This document shows positions 2,045-59,512 of a stretch of 64,000 nt of DNA, piece after piece (position 1 is the stretch's first letter; every line of letters starts with the position of its first letter). The notes beneath the pieces are model-generated. The model was not told the origin of the DNA. It did no database searches and worked only from the letters and a program-made list of their open reading frames with translations. This DNA is from Octopus vulgaris (Eukaryota): contig OX597823.1 of NCBI GenBank assembly GCA_951406725.2, forward strand, positions 73,656,001 to 73,720,000. The letters are read 5' to 3'. Position numbers and translations under genes: made by a program.

Positions 2045-2443
2045 GGGCAGGAGCGGCTGTGTGGTTAGTAGCTTGCTTACCAACCACATGGTTCTGGGTT
2101 CAGTCCCACTGCGTGAAACCTTGGGCAAGTGTCTTCTACTATACCCTTGGGCCGACCAAAGCCTTGTGAGTGGATTTGATAGATGGAAACTGAAAGAAGC
2201 TCGTCGTATATATGTATATATATATATATGTGTGTGTTTGTATATCTGTTTATTCCCCCAACATTGCTTGACAACTGATGCTGGTGTGTTTATGTCCCCG
2301 TAACTTAGCGGTTCAGCTAAAGAGACCGATAAAATAAGTACTAGGCTTACAAGGAATAAGTCCTGGGGTCGATTTGCTTGATGAAAGGTGGTGCTCCAGC
2401 ATAGCCACAGTCAAATTACTGAAACAAGTAAAAGAGTAAAAGA
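2045..2443 (+). mobile_element. Full-length SINE family 2 (tRNA head, CORE-like accttgggcaagtg segment, internal TA/TG microsatellite, LINE-related 3' tail)
   Basis: ggctgtgtggttag (A box), ggttcagtccc (B box); 3' end ggtggtgctccagcatagccacagtcaaattactgaaac followed by (gtaaaaga)2. Confidence 0.85.
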
Positions 2444-6488: not shown

Positions 6489-6737
6489 CTATACACACAC
6501 ACAGTGAGAGAGAGACACTTAACTATCGTACTTATCAAAAACGTCCTTTATTGATAGATATATTATCAGTCTCAAATTGTCAGCTTTTGTCTCTGAGTGC
6601 TTTGAACAACTCTTGTGATAAATATAGAATATCATCTAATTTTGTTATTTCCCTAAGGCAAGAATTTTCTTTGTTTTAATCAACAGACTTCTACTTCATG
6701 ATTAACAGGGGATTTTCACTTGAGTATTTCCCTTTCA

Positions 6738-7121
6738 TCTTCTACTTGTTTCAGCCATTAGACTGCGGCCATGCTGGGGCACCACCTTAAAGAATTTTAG
6801 TCAAATGAACCAACCACATTTTTTTTTTATAAAGCCTTGCACTTATTTTACTGGTCTCTTTTGCTGAACTGCTAAGTTACAGGAATGTAGATACACCAAT
6901 ACCAGCTGTCAAGCGGTGGTGGTAGTGGGGGGCAAATACAGACACAAAGACATGCACACAGATGGGCTTCTTTCAGTTTCCATCTACCAAATTCACTCAA
7001 GGTTTTGGTCAATCTGTGGCTATAGTAAAAGACAGTTGCCCAAATTGCTATGCAGTGGGACTGAACCCAGAACCATGTAGTTGGGAAGCAAACATCTTAC
7101 AACACAGCCATACCTGTGCCT
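6738..7121 (-). mobile_element. SINE family 2, full length
   Basis: Tail cttgtttcagccattagactgcggccatgctggggcaccacc through head gggactgaacccagaacc...acacagcc. Confidence 0.8.
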
Positions 7122-7211
7122 AAAATGTAATCAATGAGGATTAACTGTAGCTTTCTTTTATCATTTCTATTATTTCCAAGAATTGGTTGTTAACAGATGT
7201 TTACAATTTAC

Positions 7212-7405
7212 TCTTCTTTCTTTTACTTGTTTCAGTCATTTGACTGTGGCCATACTGGAGCACTGCCTTTAGTCAAGCAAATCAACCCCAGGACTTATTC
7301 TTTGGAAGCCTAGTACTTATTCTATCAGTCTCTTTTGCTGAACTGCTAAGTTACTGGGACGTAAACACACCAGCATCGGTTGTCAAGCGATGTTGGGGGG
7401 ACAAA
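7212..7405 (-). mobile_element. SINE family 2, 3' half (5' half at 8768-8912)
   Basis: Reverse complement of 2240-2440. Confidence 0.8.
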
Positions 7406-7486
7406 CATATATACACACACACACATACATACATACATACATATATATATATATATACACACATATATATATATATATACACATAC

Positions 7487-15498: not shown

Positions 15499-16414
15499 AC
15501 ATGGACAAGAACGTATAACTCAAGAAAACGATACAATAAACACGGACAGGACATTCGAAACCCTCAGTCTTCAGTCAAGAACCGGATCATCGTAGTAATT
15601 TCGGCTGATTAATCTATATATATATACATATATAAATTCGGGGTGAGTACTTGATAATTATAAGCACCTGTGTATACCGTTTGGTGGTGTAGGTGGTGGA
15701 GTAAATTGATAGGCCCGAAACATATGTACCGCTGAATCCTTCGCATCATGTTTTTATTTTATTTTGATCAATATATATATATATATATATACAGCTTCAA
15801 AACTAACTGACCTTAAATATATATATATTTGTAACCACGTGTTTACCTACCACATACCCGTACCCGTACATATATATATACATATATAACTACATATATT
15901 GTATATATACACATATATATCTGTGTATATATAATATCCTCAAACAACCAAATAATCAAAAACTCACACCCTTAAGATATATATAGCAAGCTACACATAT
16001 ATATATATATACACTTCTTATAACTCCCAAGAAACAATATATATATTTTCAAAAATCAAAAGGAATATACAAAATAAAGAAAAAACAAATATGACTAACT
16101 TCACAGGCCTGCAACAGACGAAATTGGTCTGATAACGAAATTGATGTTTTAATAAACACATATGGCTCTCTCTTTCCCAAACAGAAAATCTAAATGTCTT
16201 GTGTTTGAATGAGATTGCCGAAAAAACAGTATCTGATAACGAAAGTGGTCAACACACGATCCGTCAAACAGATTCGTAGCAAGTTGAAACATATCGAAGT
16301 ATCTTTCACACTGATAAGAGTGTATTGCCATTATGAAAAGCTTCTACATATTTTCACAGTTCAAGAACAACAACAGCTTCAAACATATGGCTGGAACAAC
16401 AACAACAAGGCAGA

Positions 16415-17338
16415 ATGAGCCACTCCTGGTTCCCAACACAAGCTGACCCTGACATCGGTCAGGCACAACAACAACAACAACAGCCACAGCAACAAGAACA
16501 ACAACAGCCACTCCTCAACTCTAGCTTACTAGACGATTCACTAAATGCCAGTATCTTTTCACCGCTCTCACAGCAACCACCACAATTATCATCATCATCA
16601 TCACCACCGCTGCCACCATCGTCTTCTATCACCAAAAATACCAACAGAAAACCAAATAAGAAACCACTGCCCTCTTCCCCCACATCACCACCTCAATACT
16701 ACTGCAGTAACAAAAACTTAAAGAAACATAGGAAGCAGAATGCGCCCCCCACGGCACAAACAAGAAATCCCCAAATATGCCGCTATTCACTGCGCCAGAG
16801 ACTCTGCACAAATAGTGACTGCATCTTCACGCATCTACCCGGCACTAGACGCACTACTGGCCAAGGCCAAAGCACGCATCCCACAATAACATCAACACCA
16901 CCAAATAGTAAATCGAAATTCAAAACACACACAACTCGGAGTCCCAAAATCTGCCGGTATTCCCAACGTGAGAGAACATGTCTACTGAGTGACTGTCCCT
17001 TCACTCATCTTCCAGGGACCCGACGCACAAACAGAAACGGGGCCTCAAGCCAACACACAAACCTGAATAACAATAAAAATAGAAACACACCATGCTGCAG
17101 TAATGCTGGTCCAGTCTTTTCAGGAAGACACAAAAACAACAACAACAAAAGTGGAAACTACAACCCTATCCAACAGTGCAACCACACCTCCAGCCAAAAA
17201 CTGCTCCCTAAGCAGGAAAATTCTTTTTTAGCCATGTTGAACATGGCAAAAGAGATACACAAAAACATTCTAGCCATCACTCAACACCATCCTATGCTAT
17301 TACCCCAGTGCACCAATTCCCCACATTGCTGCCACTAA
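16415..17338 (+). CDS. LINE family A ORF1 (Q/S/N-rich, two CCCH zinc fingers)
   Basis: C-x8-C-x4-C-x3-H twice (CRYSLRQRLCTNSDCIFTH, CRYSQRERTCLLSDCPFTH), directly upstream of the APE domain; true start uncertain because upstream sequence is garbled. Confidence 0.8.
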   Translation: MSHSWFPTQADPDIGQAQQQQQQPQQQEQQQPLLNSSLLDDSLNASIFSPLSQQPPQLSSSSSPPLPPSSSITKNTNRKPNKKPLPSSPTSPPQYYCSNKNLKKHRKQNAPPTAQTRNPQICRYSLRQRLCTNSDCIFTHLPGTRRTTGQGQSTHPTITSTPPNSKSKFKTHTTRSPKICRYSQRERTCLLSDCPFTHLPGTRRTNRNGASSQHTNLNNNKNRNTPCCSNAGPVFSGRHKNNNNKSGNYNPIQQCNHTSSQKLLPKQENSFLAMLNMAKEIHKNILAITQHHPMLLPQCTNSPHCCH

Positions 17339-20300
17339 CACACACAAAAAATCCGTACCCCCCTGCAACAGTCAAAACCAGCCACTACACTAACCTCCAC
17401 ATTCCTACTCAATGCACAAGGTGTCAGCCCTTCCATCAATGCACAAAAATGGAAGGTCCAATTCATTGAAGACTGGGTTGGTAACCATTCACACCACATC
17501 CCTTTCTTCATTCTCACTGAGACCCACCTTGACAACTCCCACTTGGAAGCTTGAAGTGAGAGTGAAGAATTTCACAACCATCCGCGCGGATCGTATCGGC
17601 AGGAGGAAGGGTGGAACTGCCATTTTCCTGCATGGTTCATTTACGGCAGATGGAAATAGTATATTCTCCAACGGCTACTGTGAATCAGTCACCGTGCACA
17701 ACAAAGCCAATGATCTGACAGTAGTTGGGCTCTATAGGCCGCCCCAAACACCCATACTGTGCTTTAAAGAATGCCTCAACAGCATTAAGTGCTTTACTCA
17801 GCAGTGCCATTCTAGCAACATACTCATGATGGGAGAACTTCAATCTACCCTGTGTTGACTGGACTACAAACTGTTTGAAACCAAGCACTCCTGCCTCAAC
17901 CGCTGACAAAGAAGCAGCAGAGTCACTTTTCGACTTTACGAATGAGTTTTTCTTGTCCCAACTTGTCCTTGCACCAACAAGACATCAGAACATTTTGGAC
18001 CTAGTGTTTAGTAACCACACTAACACTATACATAACGTTACAGTGGAAAAAACCCTTCTTTCAGACCATGACATGGTTCTCTGTAACATGAAATTCCACC
18101 AGCCGAAAGCTAATCCTAGTGACCTTCCTCCAGCCCACCCATTTGACAACATGGATCTCCATAAAGCCAACTGGGATGCAATCAGGAACGAGCTATCAAA
18201 TGTTGACTGGTCCTTTACACATACACACATCTCCACCAACCATAAAACATCTTGGCAGATCTTTGTAGACACCGTCACAGACATATGTGCAAAACACTCC
18301 CCACCAAGACCTGTGAACAAAAAGTGCAGAATCCCCCCAAAACAGAAAAACCATTATCAGAAAAATAAAAAGAACAAACAAAAAAATTAACAAACTAAAG
18401 TACTGCCAACAGCAACACACACATTCGACGGCTATCGCACTGCTTGAATCCAAAAAATATAACCTCCAACAATGCATGAAGTCCCTCATCAATAACCAAA
18501 GATCAGCTGAGGAGAAGTGGGCCATTGAAAAAATCAAACTCAACCCCAAAGTGTTCTTTTCATTTGCGAGGAAACGCAGGGTCACTGTCTCCACTGTAGG
18601 CCCTCTAATTGACGAAACTGGCACTCTCCAAGATAATGCCAAATCCATGGCCGAGATACTGCAGAAACAATACTGCTCTGTTTTCAGCAATCCTGATATG
18701 GCCGATCTGGGCTGTATCAGTGATGTCAACCCCCAACACACTATATCGGACATAACGTTTAGTGCCCCTGATGTCTTAGCGGCGATAAACGAAATAAAAC
18801 ACAATTCAGCAGTAGGCCCCGATAGGTTCCCTGCTTGTGTCCTGAAGGTGTGTCGACACCAACTTGCATCTCCCCTTGCTAATCTGTGGAGAAACTCACT
18901 GGATGCTGGCTATATTCCAAAAAACCTTCTGTCCCAGTCTGTTGTCCCAGTTTTCAAAAAGGGAAACAAGTCCCTTGCAGTGAATTACCGTCCGATCTCA
19001 CTCACCTCTCATATCATCAAGGTATTTGAGAGGGTGGTGAGATCTCAAATAACCCAATTTCTGGAAAGCAACAGACGGCTGATCTCCAACCAACATGGGT
19101 TCCGTAATGGAAGGGACTGCCTAACGCAGCTCCTGCATCACTTTGAGGACATTTTGAGAGCTTTGGGAGAGGGCTCCAACACTGATGTCATCTACCTTGA
19201 TTTCAGTAAGGCCTTCGACAGGGTCGATCACAAGATCCTATTGAAAAAACTATCCAACATTGGTGTCTCTGGAAAGTTACTTGAAATGGATTAAGTGTTT
19301 CCTGACAGACAGATCTCAACATGTTGTAGTTGAAGGGGTAAAATCAAGCCCAGCCAAAGTCAGTAGTGGCGTTCCGCAAGGCACTGTGCTGGGCCCACTT
19401 CTTTTCATCATTTACATTAATGACATTAATGACATCATCAAGCACAGCAACATAAAAATCTTTGCAGATGACTCCAAGCTACAGAAGGTCATAAATGAGG
19501 CGAGTGACCGGACATGCCTTCAGTCAGATCTACTGGCTGTTATCCAATGGACAGAAAAAAACAATATGCTGCTGAACGAGGATAAATTTGAGCTAATCCA
19601 CTTTGGAAAAGAGGATGCCCTGAAACTCCCATACTCCCTTCCTTCAGGTGAAACTCTCGCGGCGTCCAACAACATCAGAGACTTGGGAGTAATTGTGGAC
19701 AACAACGTAAGCTGGGCCACTCATATAAACACCAAAGTTGACATGGCCCGCAGAATGTGTTCCTGGATTCTCAGAACTTTCCAGTCGAGAGATATCCACA
19801 CCATTATCCTTCTCTTCTCCACTTTTGCCCGACCCCACCTTGAATACTGTTGTCCACTGTGGTCTCCCCACACAATACAAGGTATCATAAAAGTCGAAGC
19901 ACCTCAAAGGGCAATCACAAAAAAGATAGATGGCATGACAGGCCTCGACTATTGGGGTCGACTAGAAAAGCTAAAACTCTATTCTCTCCAACGTCGTCGT
20001 GAGCGCTACATCATCTGCATGATGTGGAAAATATTCCATCAGCATTGCCCAAATGATGTTGGCATCACCTTTAAGGTACATCCAAGGCTTGGGCCCCGTG
20101 CCATCCGCCCAAAACAAAAATCGCACTCTCATCTCATAACAACAATACGGCACAATTATTTCACCTCAATTGGCCCCGCTCTCTTTAACATTACACCAAA
20201 ACACATTAAAACAGAAACTGACCCTATAGGGTTCAAGAAGTCTTTGGACAGATTCCTTCAAGAAATCCCGGATAAACCCCCTACACCCGGATATGTCTCT

Positions 20301-20348
20301 GTAAACAATAACTCTCTACTTGAGTGGGCCATAGTGCCCAAATTCTGA
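17339..20348 (+). pseudogene. LINE family A ORF2 (APE endonuclease + RT, CR1 group), split by about 4 single-base insertions
   Basis: LLNAQG, LTETHL, YRPP, MG(D)FN, LDLVF, LSDH; [55 protein letters not shown]; frameshifts near 17550, 17836, 18335, 19282. Confidence 0.95.
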
Positions 20349-20429
20349 CTTGAAAGACTTCACCAGGTGGTGCTATTAAGTTAGACATGGCCTGGGCCAA
20401 TAATGGCCGAAACCTATCAAAGTATCAAA

Positions 20430-22231
<1,802 letters not shown>

Positions 22232-22519
22232 TCTCTTCTATATACATAGTGTGTTTTCTGTGTGTGTATGTCATACCACGGCTTTCAACCGATTTTGATG
22301 AAACTTGATACACACATAGCAATGTCATAATTCAAAACTAACGCAGCGAAAATTTTGAAAAGTTGCCCCAGTTCTGAAAAAATCGATCAAATGACATGGG
22401 GTCGAGAATCAGAAACCCAAACCACAGACCGTATCGCAACTCCACCTTTTTTAACTCTAAAAAAAATTTACCATCGTTTTTTTTCCATTTTTGCTATTTT
22501 TTGGCTATAACTCTCTAAA
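22232..22519 (+). mobile_element. Deleted/garbled copy of non-autonomous Helitron D
   Basis: Collinear with 48481-48808; lacks the 3' CTAG end. Confidence 0.8.
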
Positions 22520-23293
<774 letters not shown>

Positions 23294-24827
23294 TGATTGA
23301 TTGATTGATTCTAGTTTCAGCTTATGAGCTGTGGCCATGCTGGGGCACCGCCATTTGGTGTTGCTACTTGGTTTCACTTCATGGAGGCTTTCTAGCAACT
23401 GCTATTTGGTGCATGAGAGAGTTCGATGCAGCTGCCCTCATCTGCCCCTCCTGCCGTGAAGTTGGTTCATCTGGGACACCTGACAGGAAGAGATCCAGCT
23501 TCATTTTAAAGACATCTGTATCCACCCCATGCAGGTCTCTCAGGTTCTTCGGGAGGATATTGAAGAGCTGTGGGCCTCGGAAGCCCAGGCTATCACAGAA
23601 TCTTGTCCTACATCTTGATGGCAGGTTTGGAGTCCTAGGCACCACGCAGTGGCGCCCAGTTCTGGCATTTGCGTAACTCTCGATGCCAAAGTTCAGGACA
23701 CTTCCCTCCAGGATCTTCCAGATGTATATTATGGCATATCTTTCCCGCCTACGCTCCAGGGAATATAATTTTAATCTCTTGAGTCTTTCCCAGTAGCTTA
23801 CATTCTGCATAGAGGCTATCTTCTTTGTGTAGCTTCGTTGGATCGCCTCAAGTTCTGTGATCAACTTGACACTGGATGGTGACCATAGCTGAGAGCAATA
23901 GTCAAAGTGGCTTAGGACAAGTGTCTTCCAGAGGACCATCATGGTTTCTTGTTCTCTTGTTCTAAAGGTTCTAAGAATCCATCCAGCCAGCCGTCTACAT
24001 TTCATTGTCAGTTTAGCAACATGTACATGAAAGGTCGCGTCATCACTCATGTGAATACCAAGGTCACGCACTGATTGTGCCTCTGGGATTGCAATCCCTC
24101 CGGGTCCAGTGTATTCATTGGGTATTGCATTCAGTTTTGCATGCTGATAGTATAAAGCTTGAAACTTTCCAGCATTGAACTGCATGCTATTCTTTTCAGC
24201 CCACTTGTATATTTCGTCCAGCTCACATTGCAGGTGTTTATTGTCCTCAGGGTTCTGTATTGCTTGTGAGACTTTTGTATCATCTGCATAACTTGTGATC
24301 GTGGCTCTCTGCGTGGCTGAGGGCATGTCTGAGAGGGCCATTATGAACAGTAGTGGTCCCAGAACAGTGCCCTGCGGAACACCGCTCACTATTTGTGTGT
24401 TAATGGAGGTGGCCCCATTGGCTACTACCACCTGACTTCTATCCTTCAGAAAGTCATGAAGCCATTCTCCCAGTTTTCCAACTATGTTGAGATCACGCAG
24501 TTTGTGACATATCATTCCATGATCGACTTTATCAAAGGCCTTTGCAAAGTCGAGATATATCACTTCCACATTTGAGTGGTTGAGCAGCCGTTTCAGCACC
24601 CAGTCATAGTGTTGTAGGAGCTGAGTTAAACAGCTTCTCCCTGGTCGGAAACCATGTTGGGTGTCGGGCAGCAAGTCATTCTCTTCAAGGAAGGTGATCA
24701 GCTTCCTTCTGACTATTCGTTCCATGACCTTGCTGATGTGTGAGGTCAGAGAGATAGGTCTATAGTTCTTGGCTTCCGCTCTGCTACCTCCTTTATGAAT
24801 GGGGCATATTTTACCTTCCTTCAGTTT
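23294..24827 (-). mobile_element. 5'-truncated CR1-group LINE family B (RT ORF 23379-24725), (AATC)n tail
   Basis: 448-aa ORF nearly identical to the C-terminal part of 56315-59419. Confidence 0.95.
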
Positions 24828-24856
24828 GTATATGTATATGTATATATATATGTATA

Positions 24857-25787
24857 TAAATCCTTAAATCCTTAAAAATGTTTTAGCCCGAAGGCCGCGG
24901 CCATGCTGGGGCACCACCGCTGAATGAGCTACACTAGTTTGTGAATCCACCTCTGATACGTGGCACTTGATCAACAAGGGAGTTCGATGCTGCTGCCCGC
25001 ATCCGTGTCTCCTGTCGTGAGGTAGGTTCATCTGGGACTCCCAACAAGAAGAGATCCAGTTTAGTTTTAAAGAAACCCACATCCACACCATGTAAGTCTC
25101 TCAGGCATTTAGGAGGATGTTAAAGAGCTGTGGTCCTCTGAAACCCAAGCTGTTGCAGTATCTGGACCTGTATTTTGATGGTGATGTTGGAATCCTTGGC
25201 ACCACGCAGCGGCGCCCCGTTCTGCGGTTGGAGTAACTTTGAATGCCAAAGTTTGGGACAAGACCCTCCAGGATTTTCCAGATGTATATCACTGCATATC
25301 TTCTTCCCGCCTCCGCTCCAGGGAGAAGAGGTTTAATACCTTCAGTCTTTCCCAGTAGCTGACATTTTGCATTGAGACGATTTTCTTTGTGTAGCTTCTC
25401 TGAGTTGCTTCGAGTTCTGCTGTTTGTTTTATATTGTGTGGTGACCAAAGTTGGGAGCAGTAGTCCAAGCGGCTGAGGACAAATGTTTTCCATAGGACCA
25501 TCAGTGTCTCCTTCTCTCTTGTTCTGAAAGTTCGGAGAATCCATCCAGCTAGCCGTCTGTATTTTATCACCAGATTAGCAATATGCATTTGGAAAGATGC
25601 ATCATTGCTCATGTCAATGCCCAGGTCACGCACTGATTTTGACTCAGGGATTGCAATTCTTCCTGGGCCAGTGTATCCAGTCTTCACGTCATTTACCTTT
25701 GTGTGCCAGTAGCGCAGGGCCTGGAACTTACCTGCATTAAACTGCATGTTGTTGTCCTCAGCCCACCTGTATATTGTGTCCAGTAAT
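24857..25787 (-). mobile_element. 5'-truncated CR1-group LINE family C, (TTTAAGGA)n tail
   Basis: [29 protein letters not shown]; related to but distinct from family B; two frameshifts relative to 51264-52115. Confidence 0.93.
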
Positions 25788-25819
<32 letters not shown>

Positions 25820-25820
25820 C

Positions 25821-26234
25821 AAGCACCATCCGATCGTGGCCGTTTGCCAGCCTCATCTGGCACCTGTAAGAAAACCATCCGAACGTGGCCATAGCCAGTA
25901 CCGCATCGACTGGCCTCCGTGCTGTGGGCACGTAACAAGCACCATCCGATCGTGGCCGTTTGCCAGCCTCATCTGGCACCTGTGTCGGTGGCATGATAAA
26001 AACACCATCCGAGCGTGGTCGCCTGCCAGCCTCGTCTGGCACCTGTGTCGGTGGCACATAAAATCACCCACTACACTCGGAGTGGTTGGCGTTAGGAAGG
26101 GCATCCAGCTGTAGAAACACTGCCAGATCTGACTGGACTGGTGCAGCTTTCGGGCTCCCCAGACCCCAGTTGAACCGTCCAACCCATGCTAGCATGGAAA
26201 GCGGACGTTAAAGGATGATGATGATGATGATGAT
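25821..26234 (+). mobile_element. (GAT)n-tailed retroposon E (SINE or 3' UTR of an RTE-like LINE) with internal tandem repeats
   Basis: Repeated caccatccgatcgtggccgtttgccagcctcatctggcacctgt units, then gagtggttggcgttaggaagggcatccagc...gttaaaggatgatgatg. Confidence 0.75.
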
Positions 26235-26294
26235 ATGTATATGTGTATATATATGTATATGTGTATATATATGTGTATGTATATGTATATGTAT

Positions 26295-26340
<46 letters not shown>

Positions 26341-26469
26341 AAAAATATATATATGTATATATGTATGTATATGTATATATGGATATGTATATGTATATAT
26401 GTATATGTATATATGTATATGTATATATGTATATGTATATATGTATATGTATATGTATATATGTATATG

Positions 26470-26502
<33 letters not shown>

Positions 26503-26793
26503 CGAACGTGGCATACGGTGCTAGTGCCAGGCTCCAACTGGCCTCCGTGCCTGTGACTCTTAAAAAGCACCATCCGATCGTGGCCGTTTGCCAGCCTCGT
26601 CTGGCACCTGTGCACGTGGCACATAAAAAGCACCCACTACACTCTCGGAGGGCTGGCGTCAGGAAGGGCACCTAGCTGTAGAAACACTGCCAGATCAGAC
26701 TGGGCCCTGCGCAGCCTCCTGGCTTCCCAGACCCCAGTTGAACCGTCGAACCCATGCTAGCATGGAAAACGGAAGTTAAACGATGATGATGAT
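26503..26793 (+). mobile_element. Retroposon E, second subfamily copy
   Basis: Same 3' end and (GAT)n tail with diagnostic differences. Confidence 0.75.
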
Positions 26794-26902
26794 GTATATA
26801 TATATATGTATATATATATATGTATGTATATGTATATATAATAAATGTATGTGTATATGTATATATATATATGTATGTATATGTATATATATATGTATGT
26901 AT

Positions 26903-26934
<32 letters not shown>

Positions 26935-26975
26935 GTATATATATATGTATGTATATATATATATATATATGTATG

Positions 26976-27010
<35 letters not shown>

Positions 27011-27039
27011 GTATATATATATATGTATGTATATGTATG

Positions 27040-27079
<40 letters not shown>

Positions 27080-27087
27080 TATGTATG

Positions 27088-27120
<33 letters not shown>

Positions 27121-27141
27121 GGATATATATATATATGTATG

Positions 27142-27228
<87 letters not shown>

Positions 27229-59419: not shown

Positions 59420-59512
59420 AGTGAAACCAAGTAGCAACACCAAATGGCGGTGCCCCAGCATGGCCACAGCTCATAAGCTGAAACTAGAATCAATCAATCA
59501 ATCAATCAATCA

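Follow-up and report, generated by a model that had tools for sequence, protein, structure and literature searches.

Insertion of LINEs into microsatellites may be selected, or it may follow incidentally when a short cleavage word meets a genome rich in repeats. This question is raised by a 64-kb stretch of Octopus vulgaris DNA on contig OX597823.1 (at its full length, 'the window'), in which pieces of APE-RT LINEs from three families, here called A, B, and C, are spaced by TA-based tracts that occupy 44% of the interval from 10 to 60 kb. An earlier sequence-only reading of the window had proposed that these elements target (TA)n microsatellites.

Directly after an (AT)10 tract (15771..15791) lies a near full-length element of family A, subfamily A1 (15788..20431, forward strand), which consists of an ORF1 remnant, a frameshifted APE-RT ORF2 recognized with Pfam, and a (TATCAAAG)n tail, and is followed by a TA tract (20432..22237). 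It is 97.6% identical to the longer genomic copy L119 over 4647 columns, and the alignment begins at L119 base 70 and window position ~15788. The sequence-only reading had set the start of A at 16415 and regarded its 5′ end as garbled; the junction proved readable, and it is TA. On the reverse strand follow a 1.5-kb 5′-truncated B copy (23288..24827, duplicate of 49613-51157) and, separated from it by a TA-like spacer of 30 nt, a 5′-truncated C copy with a (TTTAAGGA)n tail (24857..25787, duplicate of 51187-52116). A forward B piece (29676..31074), which duplicates the 5′ part of the copy at 56085-59512, is cut by an assembly gap of 100 N (31075..31174). Beyond the gap, the segment 31175..~40600 is an inverted, increasingly deletion-rich copy of ~40600-52347, with C, the 1.5-kb and 2.6-kb B pieces, and TA. 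The reverse strand then carries the 5′-truncated 2.6-kb B copy flanked by two kb-long TA tracts (42877..45517), the 1.5-kb 5′-truncated B copy (49613..51157), and the 5′-truncated C copy (51187..52116). A TA/TATG tract (53155..56084) leads into the last element, a forward B copy (56085..59512) that is truncated within ORF1, its start being base 2152 of a 5.6-kb full copy, and that ends with a 3′ stem-loop, an (AATC)n tail, and a (TATG)n/TA tract (59513..60003). Its ORF2, which is open from the first Met (56423..59419, 998 aa), has an APE endonuclease and a reverse transcriptase domain; Pfam gave no match in it to RNase H or a zinc knuckle.

On the other side of the N gap, the block 20431-31074 has a duplicate at 46639-57482, in which order and truncation points are the same. 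The LINE and SINE parts of this 10.6-kb block are 98-99.6% identical, and it may be a true tandem duplication or two haplotypes. The inverted segment 31175-~40600 shows one-sided deletions (505 of 2432 columns in its B part) and is probably a fold-back read or assembly artefact, not a set of independent insertions. The apparent 50-kb size of the nest is thus partly due to the duplicate and to the probable artefact. After removal of duplicates there are five independent insertions (A ×1, B ×3, C ×1), the number given before. None of the three families occurs in the flanks (1-15.7 kb and 59.6-64 kb), again in agreement with the earlier reading, or in the 10 kb beyond each end of the window.

When a strict TA score was applied (a 12-mer in which T and A alternate at 10 or more of its 12 positions, at most 6 nt from the junction), 13 of the 15 A/B/C junctions in the window passed. 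The two that failed lie at 59512, where B is followed by a (TATG)n run derived from TA, and at 23289, where the tail is a variant one and the duplicate at 49612 passes. The claim that readable junctions abut TA microsatellite held. The same score was passed by 42% of the positions inside the nest, and therefore the window alone weighs little and a genome-wide test is needed; the claim of TA insertion rests on genome-wide counts.

Loci were found by exact 3′-end patterns at 2,578 (B), 5,721 (A and relatives), and 609 (C) places. The first 30 loci listed per family, all on contig C1, and 13 further B loci were scored, with long copies extended. One C copy was the reference and was excluded from the 3′ and 5′ counts; 2 B and 7 A reference copies and one B copy at a gap were also left out at the 5′ side. 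The results showed that 87 of 102 3′ junctions (~85%; B 34/43, A 26/30, C 27/29) and 66 of 92 5′ junctions (72%; B 30/40, A 13/23, C 23/29), the latter at scattered truncation points, were in TA, compared with a background of 5.5% in 20 evenly chosen 10-kb stretches (200 kb in total). Both sides were in TA in 61 of 92 copies (66%), and 66 of the 68 copies of at least 120 nt had TA on at least one side. Within family A, the 3′ ends in TA were 12/12 for A1, 7/8 for A2, and 7/10 for an A3-type group that includes older copies. A replicate of 20 near-full-length B copies on contigs C4-C20, nine of which had an unbroken reading frame of at least 1039 codons, gave TA at 17 of 19 readable 5′ ends and 14 of 16 readable 3′ ends. 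No TA was found within 40 nt of the 5′ end in 14 of 92 copies, several A copies had TA on the 3′ side alone, and at many insertion sites the TA run was only 6-16 nt. Target-site duplications in the 92 copies comprised 17 impure candidates, 40 pure, and 3 short impure ones, with none in 32 copies; they are unreadable because insertion is inside TA. Two loci considered as SINEs (L005 and L012) were rejected as such; they are short copies of B, at sites that are (TAA)n or rich in A.

The comparison with other families showed that the bias is not general. Family D, which we take from its motifs to be a CR1-type LINE, is 29% identical to B and has 2,618 matches (B, 2,578), with copies mostly 96-99% alike; its junctions were in TA in 2 of 30 cases at the 3′ side and 5 of 26 at the 5′ side. 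The older family E, also a CR1-type control, had none (0/21 and 0/18, respectively), and an RTE family had 10/30 and 7/21. The 3′ rate of A/B/C differed from that of D with p = 1e-15 and from that of RTE with p = 1e-7. A (GAT)n-tailed SINE, also present in the window, was in TA in 7 of 30 cases. The weaker enrichment of RTE and of this SINE indicates that several retroelements are moderately drawn to TA tracts and A/B/C strongly. Thus, the TA bias of A, B, and C is real, family-specific, and genome-wide.

The TA target was present before insertion, as seen at empty paralogous sites. In 5 of 92 insertions both flanks were collinear with other copies of a host repeat, and a TA-like run was found in all of these empty paralogues (2/2, 23/23, 7/7, 25/25, and 1/1), the scored stretch including 25 nt of each flank. 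Three of the five cases, one each for A, B, and C, fall within one abundant SINE, at its internal TA run, and their empty sets overlap. No orthologous empty allele was seen in reads from other runs at two loci (L029 and L014). The L029 insertion was common to other sequencing runs, and a contig of another run spans one TA-element junction, reaching 59 letters into the element. At L014, one run's contig extends 30 letters into the element, and another runs 3 unmatched letters beyond the TA run. The TA preference proposed in the sequence-only reading is borne out genome-wide, for pre-existing tracts, far above chance, and in both orientations. Neither of the two observations that this reading had named as refuting it was made: most copies have TA flanks, and every collinear empty paralogue carries TA.

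A second A/B/C piece was found at most 1.4 kb downstream in 13 of 90 A/B/C loci; such a neighbour was seen at none of 140 random tiles and at a single one of 81 control loci. An insertion would leave TA on both sides, and the tract would stay a target on both strands; since TA is left on either side of each insertion, nests would accumulate. The proposed formation of multi-kb nests is therefore upheld as nesting throughout the genome, but the size of the nest in the window is in part a matter of duplication and artefact.

Elements of the CR1 group have an ORF2 without RNase H or C-terminal zinc knuckle and a 3′ end with a stem-loop followed by short tandem repeats and no poly(A). The ORF2s of A, B, and C match Pfam Exo_endo_phos_2 (the N-terminal APE domain) and RVT_1 and can be aligned to L1 ORF2p, and there was no Pfam match to RNase H or a C-terminal zinc knuckle at E ≤ 0.5 in three full ORF2s. 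The 3′ tails are (AATC)n in B and the repeats given above in A and C; hairpins are predicted in the 3′ ends of all three families, a prediction made without a shuffle control. From their domain layout and tails, A, B, and C appear to be young APE-RT LINEs of CR1 type. Their ORF2 identity is 71% between B and C and 36-38% between A and either of them. Full-length B is ~5.6 kb, with a tandemly repetitive 5′ UTR, within which a TA-like stretch was also noticed. The catalytic motifs of the endonuclease align with those of L1 EN, and the domain is under purifying selection, with dN/dS of 0.14 (B-C) and 0.12 (A1-A2), similar to those of RT. Its hairpin loop is short in A/B/C (PTR-xx-N.LDL) and longer in D, but it is likewise short in all six homologues aligned and is thus a lead at most. 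In the open B copy of the window (endonuclease at 56423 to ~57150), Leu precedes the DH motif, a position taken by Ser in others.

A short ORF1 overlaps the start of ORF2. Four ORF1s (from A, from C, and a B-type ORF1 in L126) gave weak Myb/SANT-like and/or CCCH-finger matches, both kinds being present in intact A copies; all these matches (Myb_DNA-bind_4, CCCH) are sub-threshold, the Myb ones scoring 25.0 and 14.5 bits against a Pfam cut-off of 27. There was no Pfam match to the described CR1 ORF1 types (PHD, esterase, RRM, CCHC) among the four, and by eye the ORF1 of D seems unrelated to them. The R1 and Tx1 clades carry CCHC knuckles in ORF1 or ORF2; zf-CCHC and zf-RVT gave no Pfam match in the A/B/C ORF1s or ORF2s. 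In a quick RT tree of 53 rows (8 from this genome and 45 of 120 homologues), built without named references, A, B, and C grouped with the homologues (SH-aLRT 96), D and RTE sat apart from them on long branches, and A was not resolved as sister of B/C. Among named homologues the closest (57%) belongs to Argonauta hians, and many further proteins lie near 40%, which suggests that the lineage is widespread. A metagenome scan gave 80 loci, nearly all below 40% identity, and the four closest had no TA-flanked ends or were cut before the element end. Atlas matches for the RT were to generic RT clusters alone.

How do these elements come to lie in TA? We consider it rather probable that the endonuclease nicks a short ATAT word and that tail pairing lengthens the target to about ATATAT. 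The ORF2 endonuclease would nick at the short alternating word, and pairing of 1-3 nt between the tail repeat and the nicked strand would prime reverse transcription and extend the effective target; both the seat of the preference in the endonuclease and the added sharpness from the tail are inferred. In the 200-kb background, a TA-like tract was opened by 60% of ATAT and 87.5% of ATATAT words, and for this reason a short-word preference resembles microsatellite targeting. Random ATATAT sites predict TA at 87.5% on the right, 74.4% on the left, and 69.6% on both sides, and the values observed for A/B/C were 85%, 72%, and 66%, respectively; a six-base word preference thus reproduces the rates as well as the excess of 3′ over 5′. 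The ends of the tails are in register with the target (AATC|ATAT or AATC|AATAT; AAAG|TATA; AGGA|TTTATA or AGGA|TATA), which is what priming of reverse transcription through 1-3 paired nt would give.

A young SINE bears on the carrier of the preference. It has the 3′ stem-loop of B, a T-less (A3-5C)n tail, and 708 matches with a median identity of 99.4%; we take its head to be tRNA-like, and no tRNA was found in it with Rfam or ARAGORN. Its 3′ flank starts with ATAT in 20 of 30 copies, often in unique DNA (null 9.6%, p = 5e-14), and 15 of 30 copies are in tracts, about as many as a 4-mer preference would give and fewer than in B (p = 0.012). The shared 3′ end suggests that this SINE is mobilized by B's proteins, and if these move an element with a T-less tail, the ATAT preference would be protein-borne. 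Against the short word stands an older SINE with the same stem-loop, which by eye is followed by TA in only ~5-6 of 39 rows. In addition, filled tracts have a median length of 240 nt, roughly double the 104-111 nt of the site-weighted background (p = 5e-7), and a pure short-word model does not predict longer tracts at filled sites. The D family is also relevant: ATAT/TATA occurs at 11 of 30 of its 3′ junctions (background 9%) and its tail contains TA, yet only 2 of 30 are in tracts, so that the 4-mer with pairing does not suffice in every family. With a short-word preference, the pattern needs no microsatellite sensor, and such a cleavage preference in a TA-rich genome is the simplest account. 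Of the proposal that a TA-specific APE or a safe-haven strategy is at work, the TA preference stands; a microsatellite-specific nuclease or a safe haven is not established, as ATAT words of 4-6 bp predict the rates.

The main rival that remains is recognition of the tract itself, which we regard as unlikely without dismissing it: the ribonucleoprotein would truly recognize long (TA)n, either because the endonuclease reads a hairpin or cruciform or because ORF1 tethers it through its Myb/SANT-like domain, and this would be maintained as a safe-haven strategy. The longer filled tracts point in this direction, as does D, which meets ATAT but rarely tracts. Moreover, A and B/C share the bias and the Myb-like/CCCH ORF1 although their ORF2s are only 36% identical, and D is without such an ORF1; L1 EN has also been reported to read DNA structure over sequence (PMC1950540). 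On the other hand, short-word arithmetic already fits all three observed rates, many sites have only the short TA runs mentioned above, the young SINE uses isolated ATAT in unique DNA, and the ORF1 Myb matches are below the Pfam cut-off.

It is improbable that the bias is borne by the RNA, such that read-through into the tract gives a (UA)n RNA end that anneals to nicked TA and adds TA with each copy. The higher score of 3′ than 5′ ends, the A copies with TA on the 3′ side alone, and the long tracts would agree with this, but the asymmetry is predicted without it, and no convincing target duplication beyond the 3′ TA run was found in 27 copies that included all one-sided cases. Furthermore, the number of 8-10-nt tail units before TA varies between copies, and the SINE with the T-less tail retains the ATAT preference. 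A host-driven origin, in which host breaks arise at fragile (TA)n tracts and take up LINE RNA without element specificity, is still more doubtful. Long AT/TA repeats have been described as break-prone, and RTE (10/30) and the (GAT)n-tailed SINE (7/30) are also enriched; however, D, which is of much the same age as B and matches at a comparable number of places, stays at the background level on its 3′ side, which disfavours breaks as the sole cause, and the endonucleases are conserved under purifying selection. That TA comes from assembly, from tail growth after insertion, or from survival of TA-embedded copies alone is very improbable, for although the window holds a duplicate and a garbled inverted segment and some copies (L250) show TA-like garbling, TA lies at dozens of different 5′ truncation points and at empty paralogues, a contig from another run crosses a TA-element junction, and D and E persist in non-TA DNA; this account is largely refuted for the bias, and the kb lengths of some tracts may be so explained.

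In the sections of the literature compared here, target-specific LINE families are described as mostly early-branched, Tx1, or R1 (PMC4640811), and APE target specificity as mainly a matter of R1 and Tx1 (PMC3812793, PMC4494074, PMC4640811). Like A/B/C, Waldo (ACAY), Mino (AC), and the Tx1-clade Kibi (TC) and Koshi (TTC) are APE-RT LINEs with most copies in a simple repeat; A/B/C differ in that their target, (TA)n, is self-complementary and serves for insertion in both orientations, and in their CR1-type tails and the lack of a CCHC match. If target specificity is defined by a single type of sequence in over 20% of flanks (PMC4494074), A/B/C lie far above this value at both the 3′ (87/102) and 5′ (66/92) sides, and the RTE control (10/30) also exceeds it. 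The list of microsatellite-targeting elements in the relevant part of PMC3812793 has no CR1 and gives TA for Micron alone. This rice MITE and the Penelope-like elements Naiad and Neptune (PMC8557442) share with A/B/C the (TA)n target and the unreadable duplications, but use a transposase or a GIY-YIG nuclease where A/B/C use an APE nuclease.

Closer to the favoured short-word mechanism are the bird CR1 of coscoroba, with a TTCT insertion preference tied to its 3′ tail repeat (PMC2612034), and RTE/Bov-B, which show a Tn-TA signature and pairing between tail and target (PMC6007223, PMC13295347); for CR1/L2/RTE, overlaps of tail and target have been described (PMC6007223). In the accounts given there, the copies are not concentrated in microsatellite, whereas A/B/C have ~85% of their 3′ ends in tracts and form nests. 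The two-ORF layout with a short ORF1 is shared with CR1-group elements whose ORF1 is of PHD, esterase, RRM, or RRM+CCHC type (PMC4120745); the weak Myb/SANT-like and CCCH matches of A/B/C set them apart, and the words CCCH, Myb, and SANT do not occur in that paper. An octopus repeat annotation lists 13 recently active CR1 families, and the word 'target' is absent from its main text (PMC13282606). No report of a CR1-group element in (TA)n was found in the literature searched, which in the excerpts used also included PMC10294476, PMC11481361, PMC5786205, and PMC8967140; Repbase may hold a prior note.

The results extend microsatellite-biased insertion to CR1-type LINEs, the (TA)n target being already known from other element classes. 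A bolder reading, which we hold to be unlikely, is that APE target specificity arose once more, outside R1 and Tx1, in a deep CR1-group lineage with a Myb/SANT and CCCH ORF1, that this lineage reads long (TA)n, perhaps through ORF1, and that it builds the kb TA arrays of octopods through repeated insertion and tract growth. A short cleavage preference as the simplest account lowers the surprise, but the system stays clean and testable. It offers a matched pair within one genome, young CR1-type A/B/C with ~85% of ends in TA and D with ~7%, and an added contrast in a SINE with a different tail that is presumably moved in trans. The TA bias accounts for the hard-to-assemble LINE-TA nests, and the contrasts in domains and tails could show how the target preference of APE LINEs arises.

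The control families were considered alongside A, B and C. Family D, a young CR1-type LINE with a (CTAA)n tail (L181-L210, L262-L265), has 2,618 pattern matches in the genome. ATAT or TATA was present at the 3' ends of 11 of 30 copies, yet TA tracts were found at just two of the 30. Among the copies of the RTE control family (L151-L180), location in TA, judged by eye and in small numbers, seemed commoner for those with a (TACAA)n tail (approximately 5/8) than for those with other tails (approximately 5/22). In family A, non-TA sequence follows the 3' ends of older, A3-like copies at L033, L035 and L042, a hint that the TA bias was weaker in the past or has since decayed. The background stretches contained reading frames (L100:5567-9088 and L109:6948-8779), which we take to resemble an LTR retrotransposon and a Dong/R4-like LINE; the frame of the latter adjoins a (TAA)n run.

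An older, very abundant repeat (window 2055-2442 and 6732-7447, and many other loci) has an internal TA run, within which insertions of A, B and C sit, and a 3' stem-loop resembling that of B and C. The majority of its own 3' ends are not in TA. The SINE-like repeats inside the nest (window 25820-26234, 26503-26794, 52149-52564 and 52867-53154) contain internal tandem units and end in (GAT)n tails; this type had 18,655 exact matches, with TA directly 3' in 7 of 30. A non-coding repeat with TA tracts on both sides (window 22240-22520 and 48482-48866), possibly a Helitron-type element, is similar to sequence flanking a B insertion at L144.

The 5' UTR of family B, upstream of ORF1, is approximately 1.6 kb long and includes a tandem array that is rich in AT and differs in length between copies (L113, L232-L261). 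Matches to B were densely clustered in one region (G000:C1:71.4-72.5 Mb), where 14 among the first 100 matches listed fell within approximately 1.1 Mb. Numerous B-type copies that are very short (L009, L015, L016, L018, L025, L026, L141, L145 and L149) begin within a few bases of where the 3' stem-loop has its 5' foot, a pattern that would fit frequent halting of reverse transcription at this point. Their source could be LINE or SINE RNA.

A young SINE of approximately 240 nt (L362-L391, e.g. L372:1326-1590), with 708 exact pattern matches in the genome, has the same 3' stem-loop as B, followed by an (A3-5C)n tail. Its head is presumably tRNA-like; searches of the head with Rfam and ARAGORN returned no hits. 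It is probable that family B carries this SINE as a passenger.
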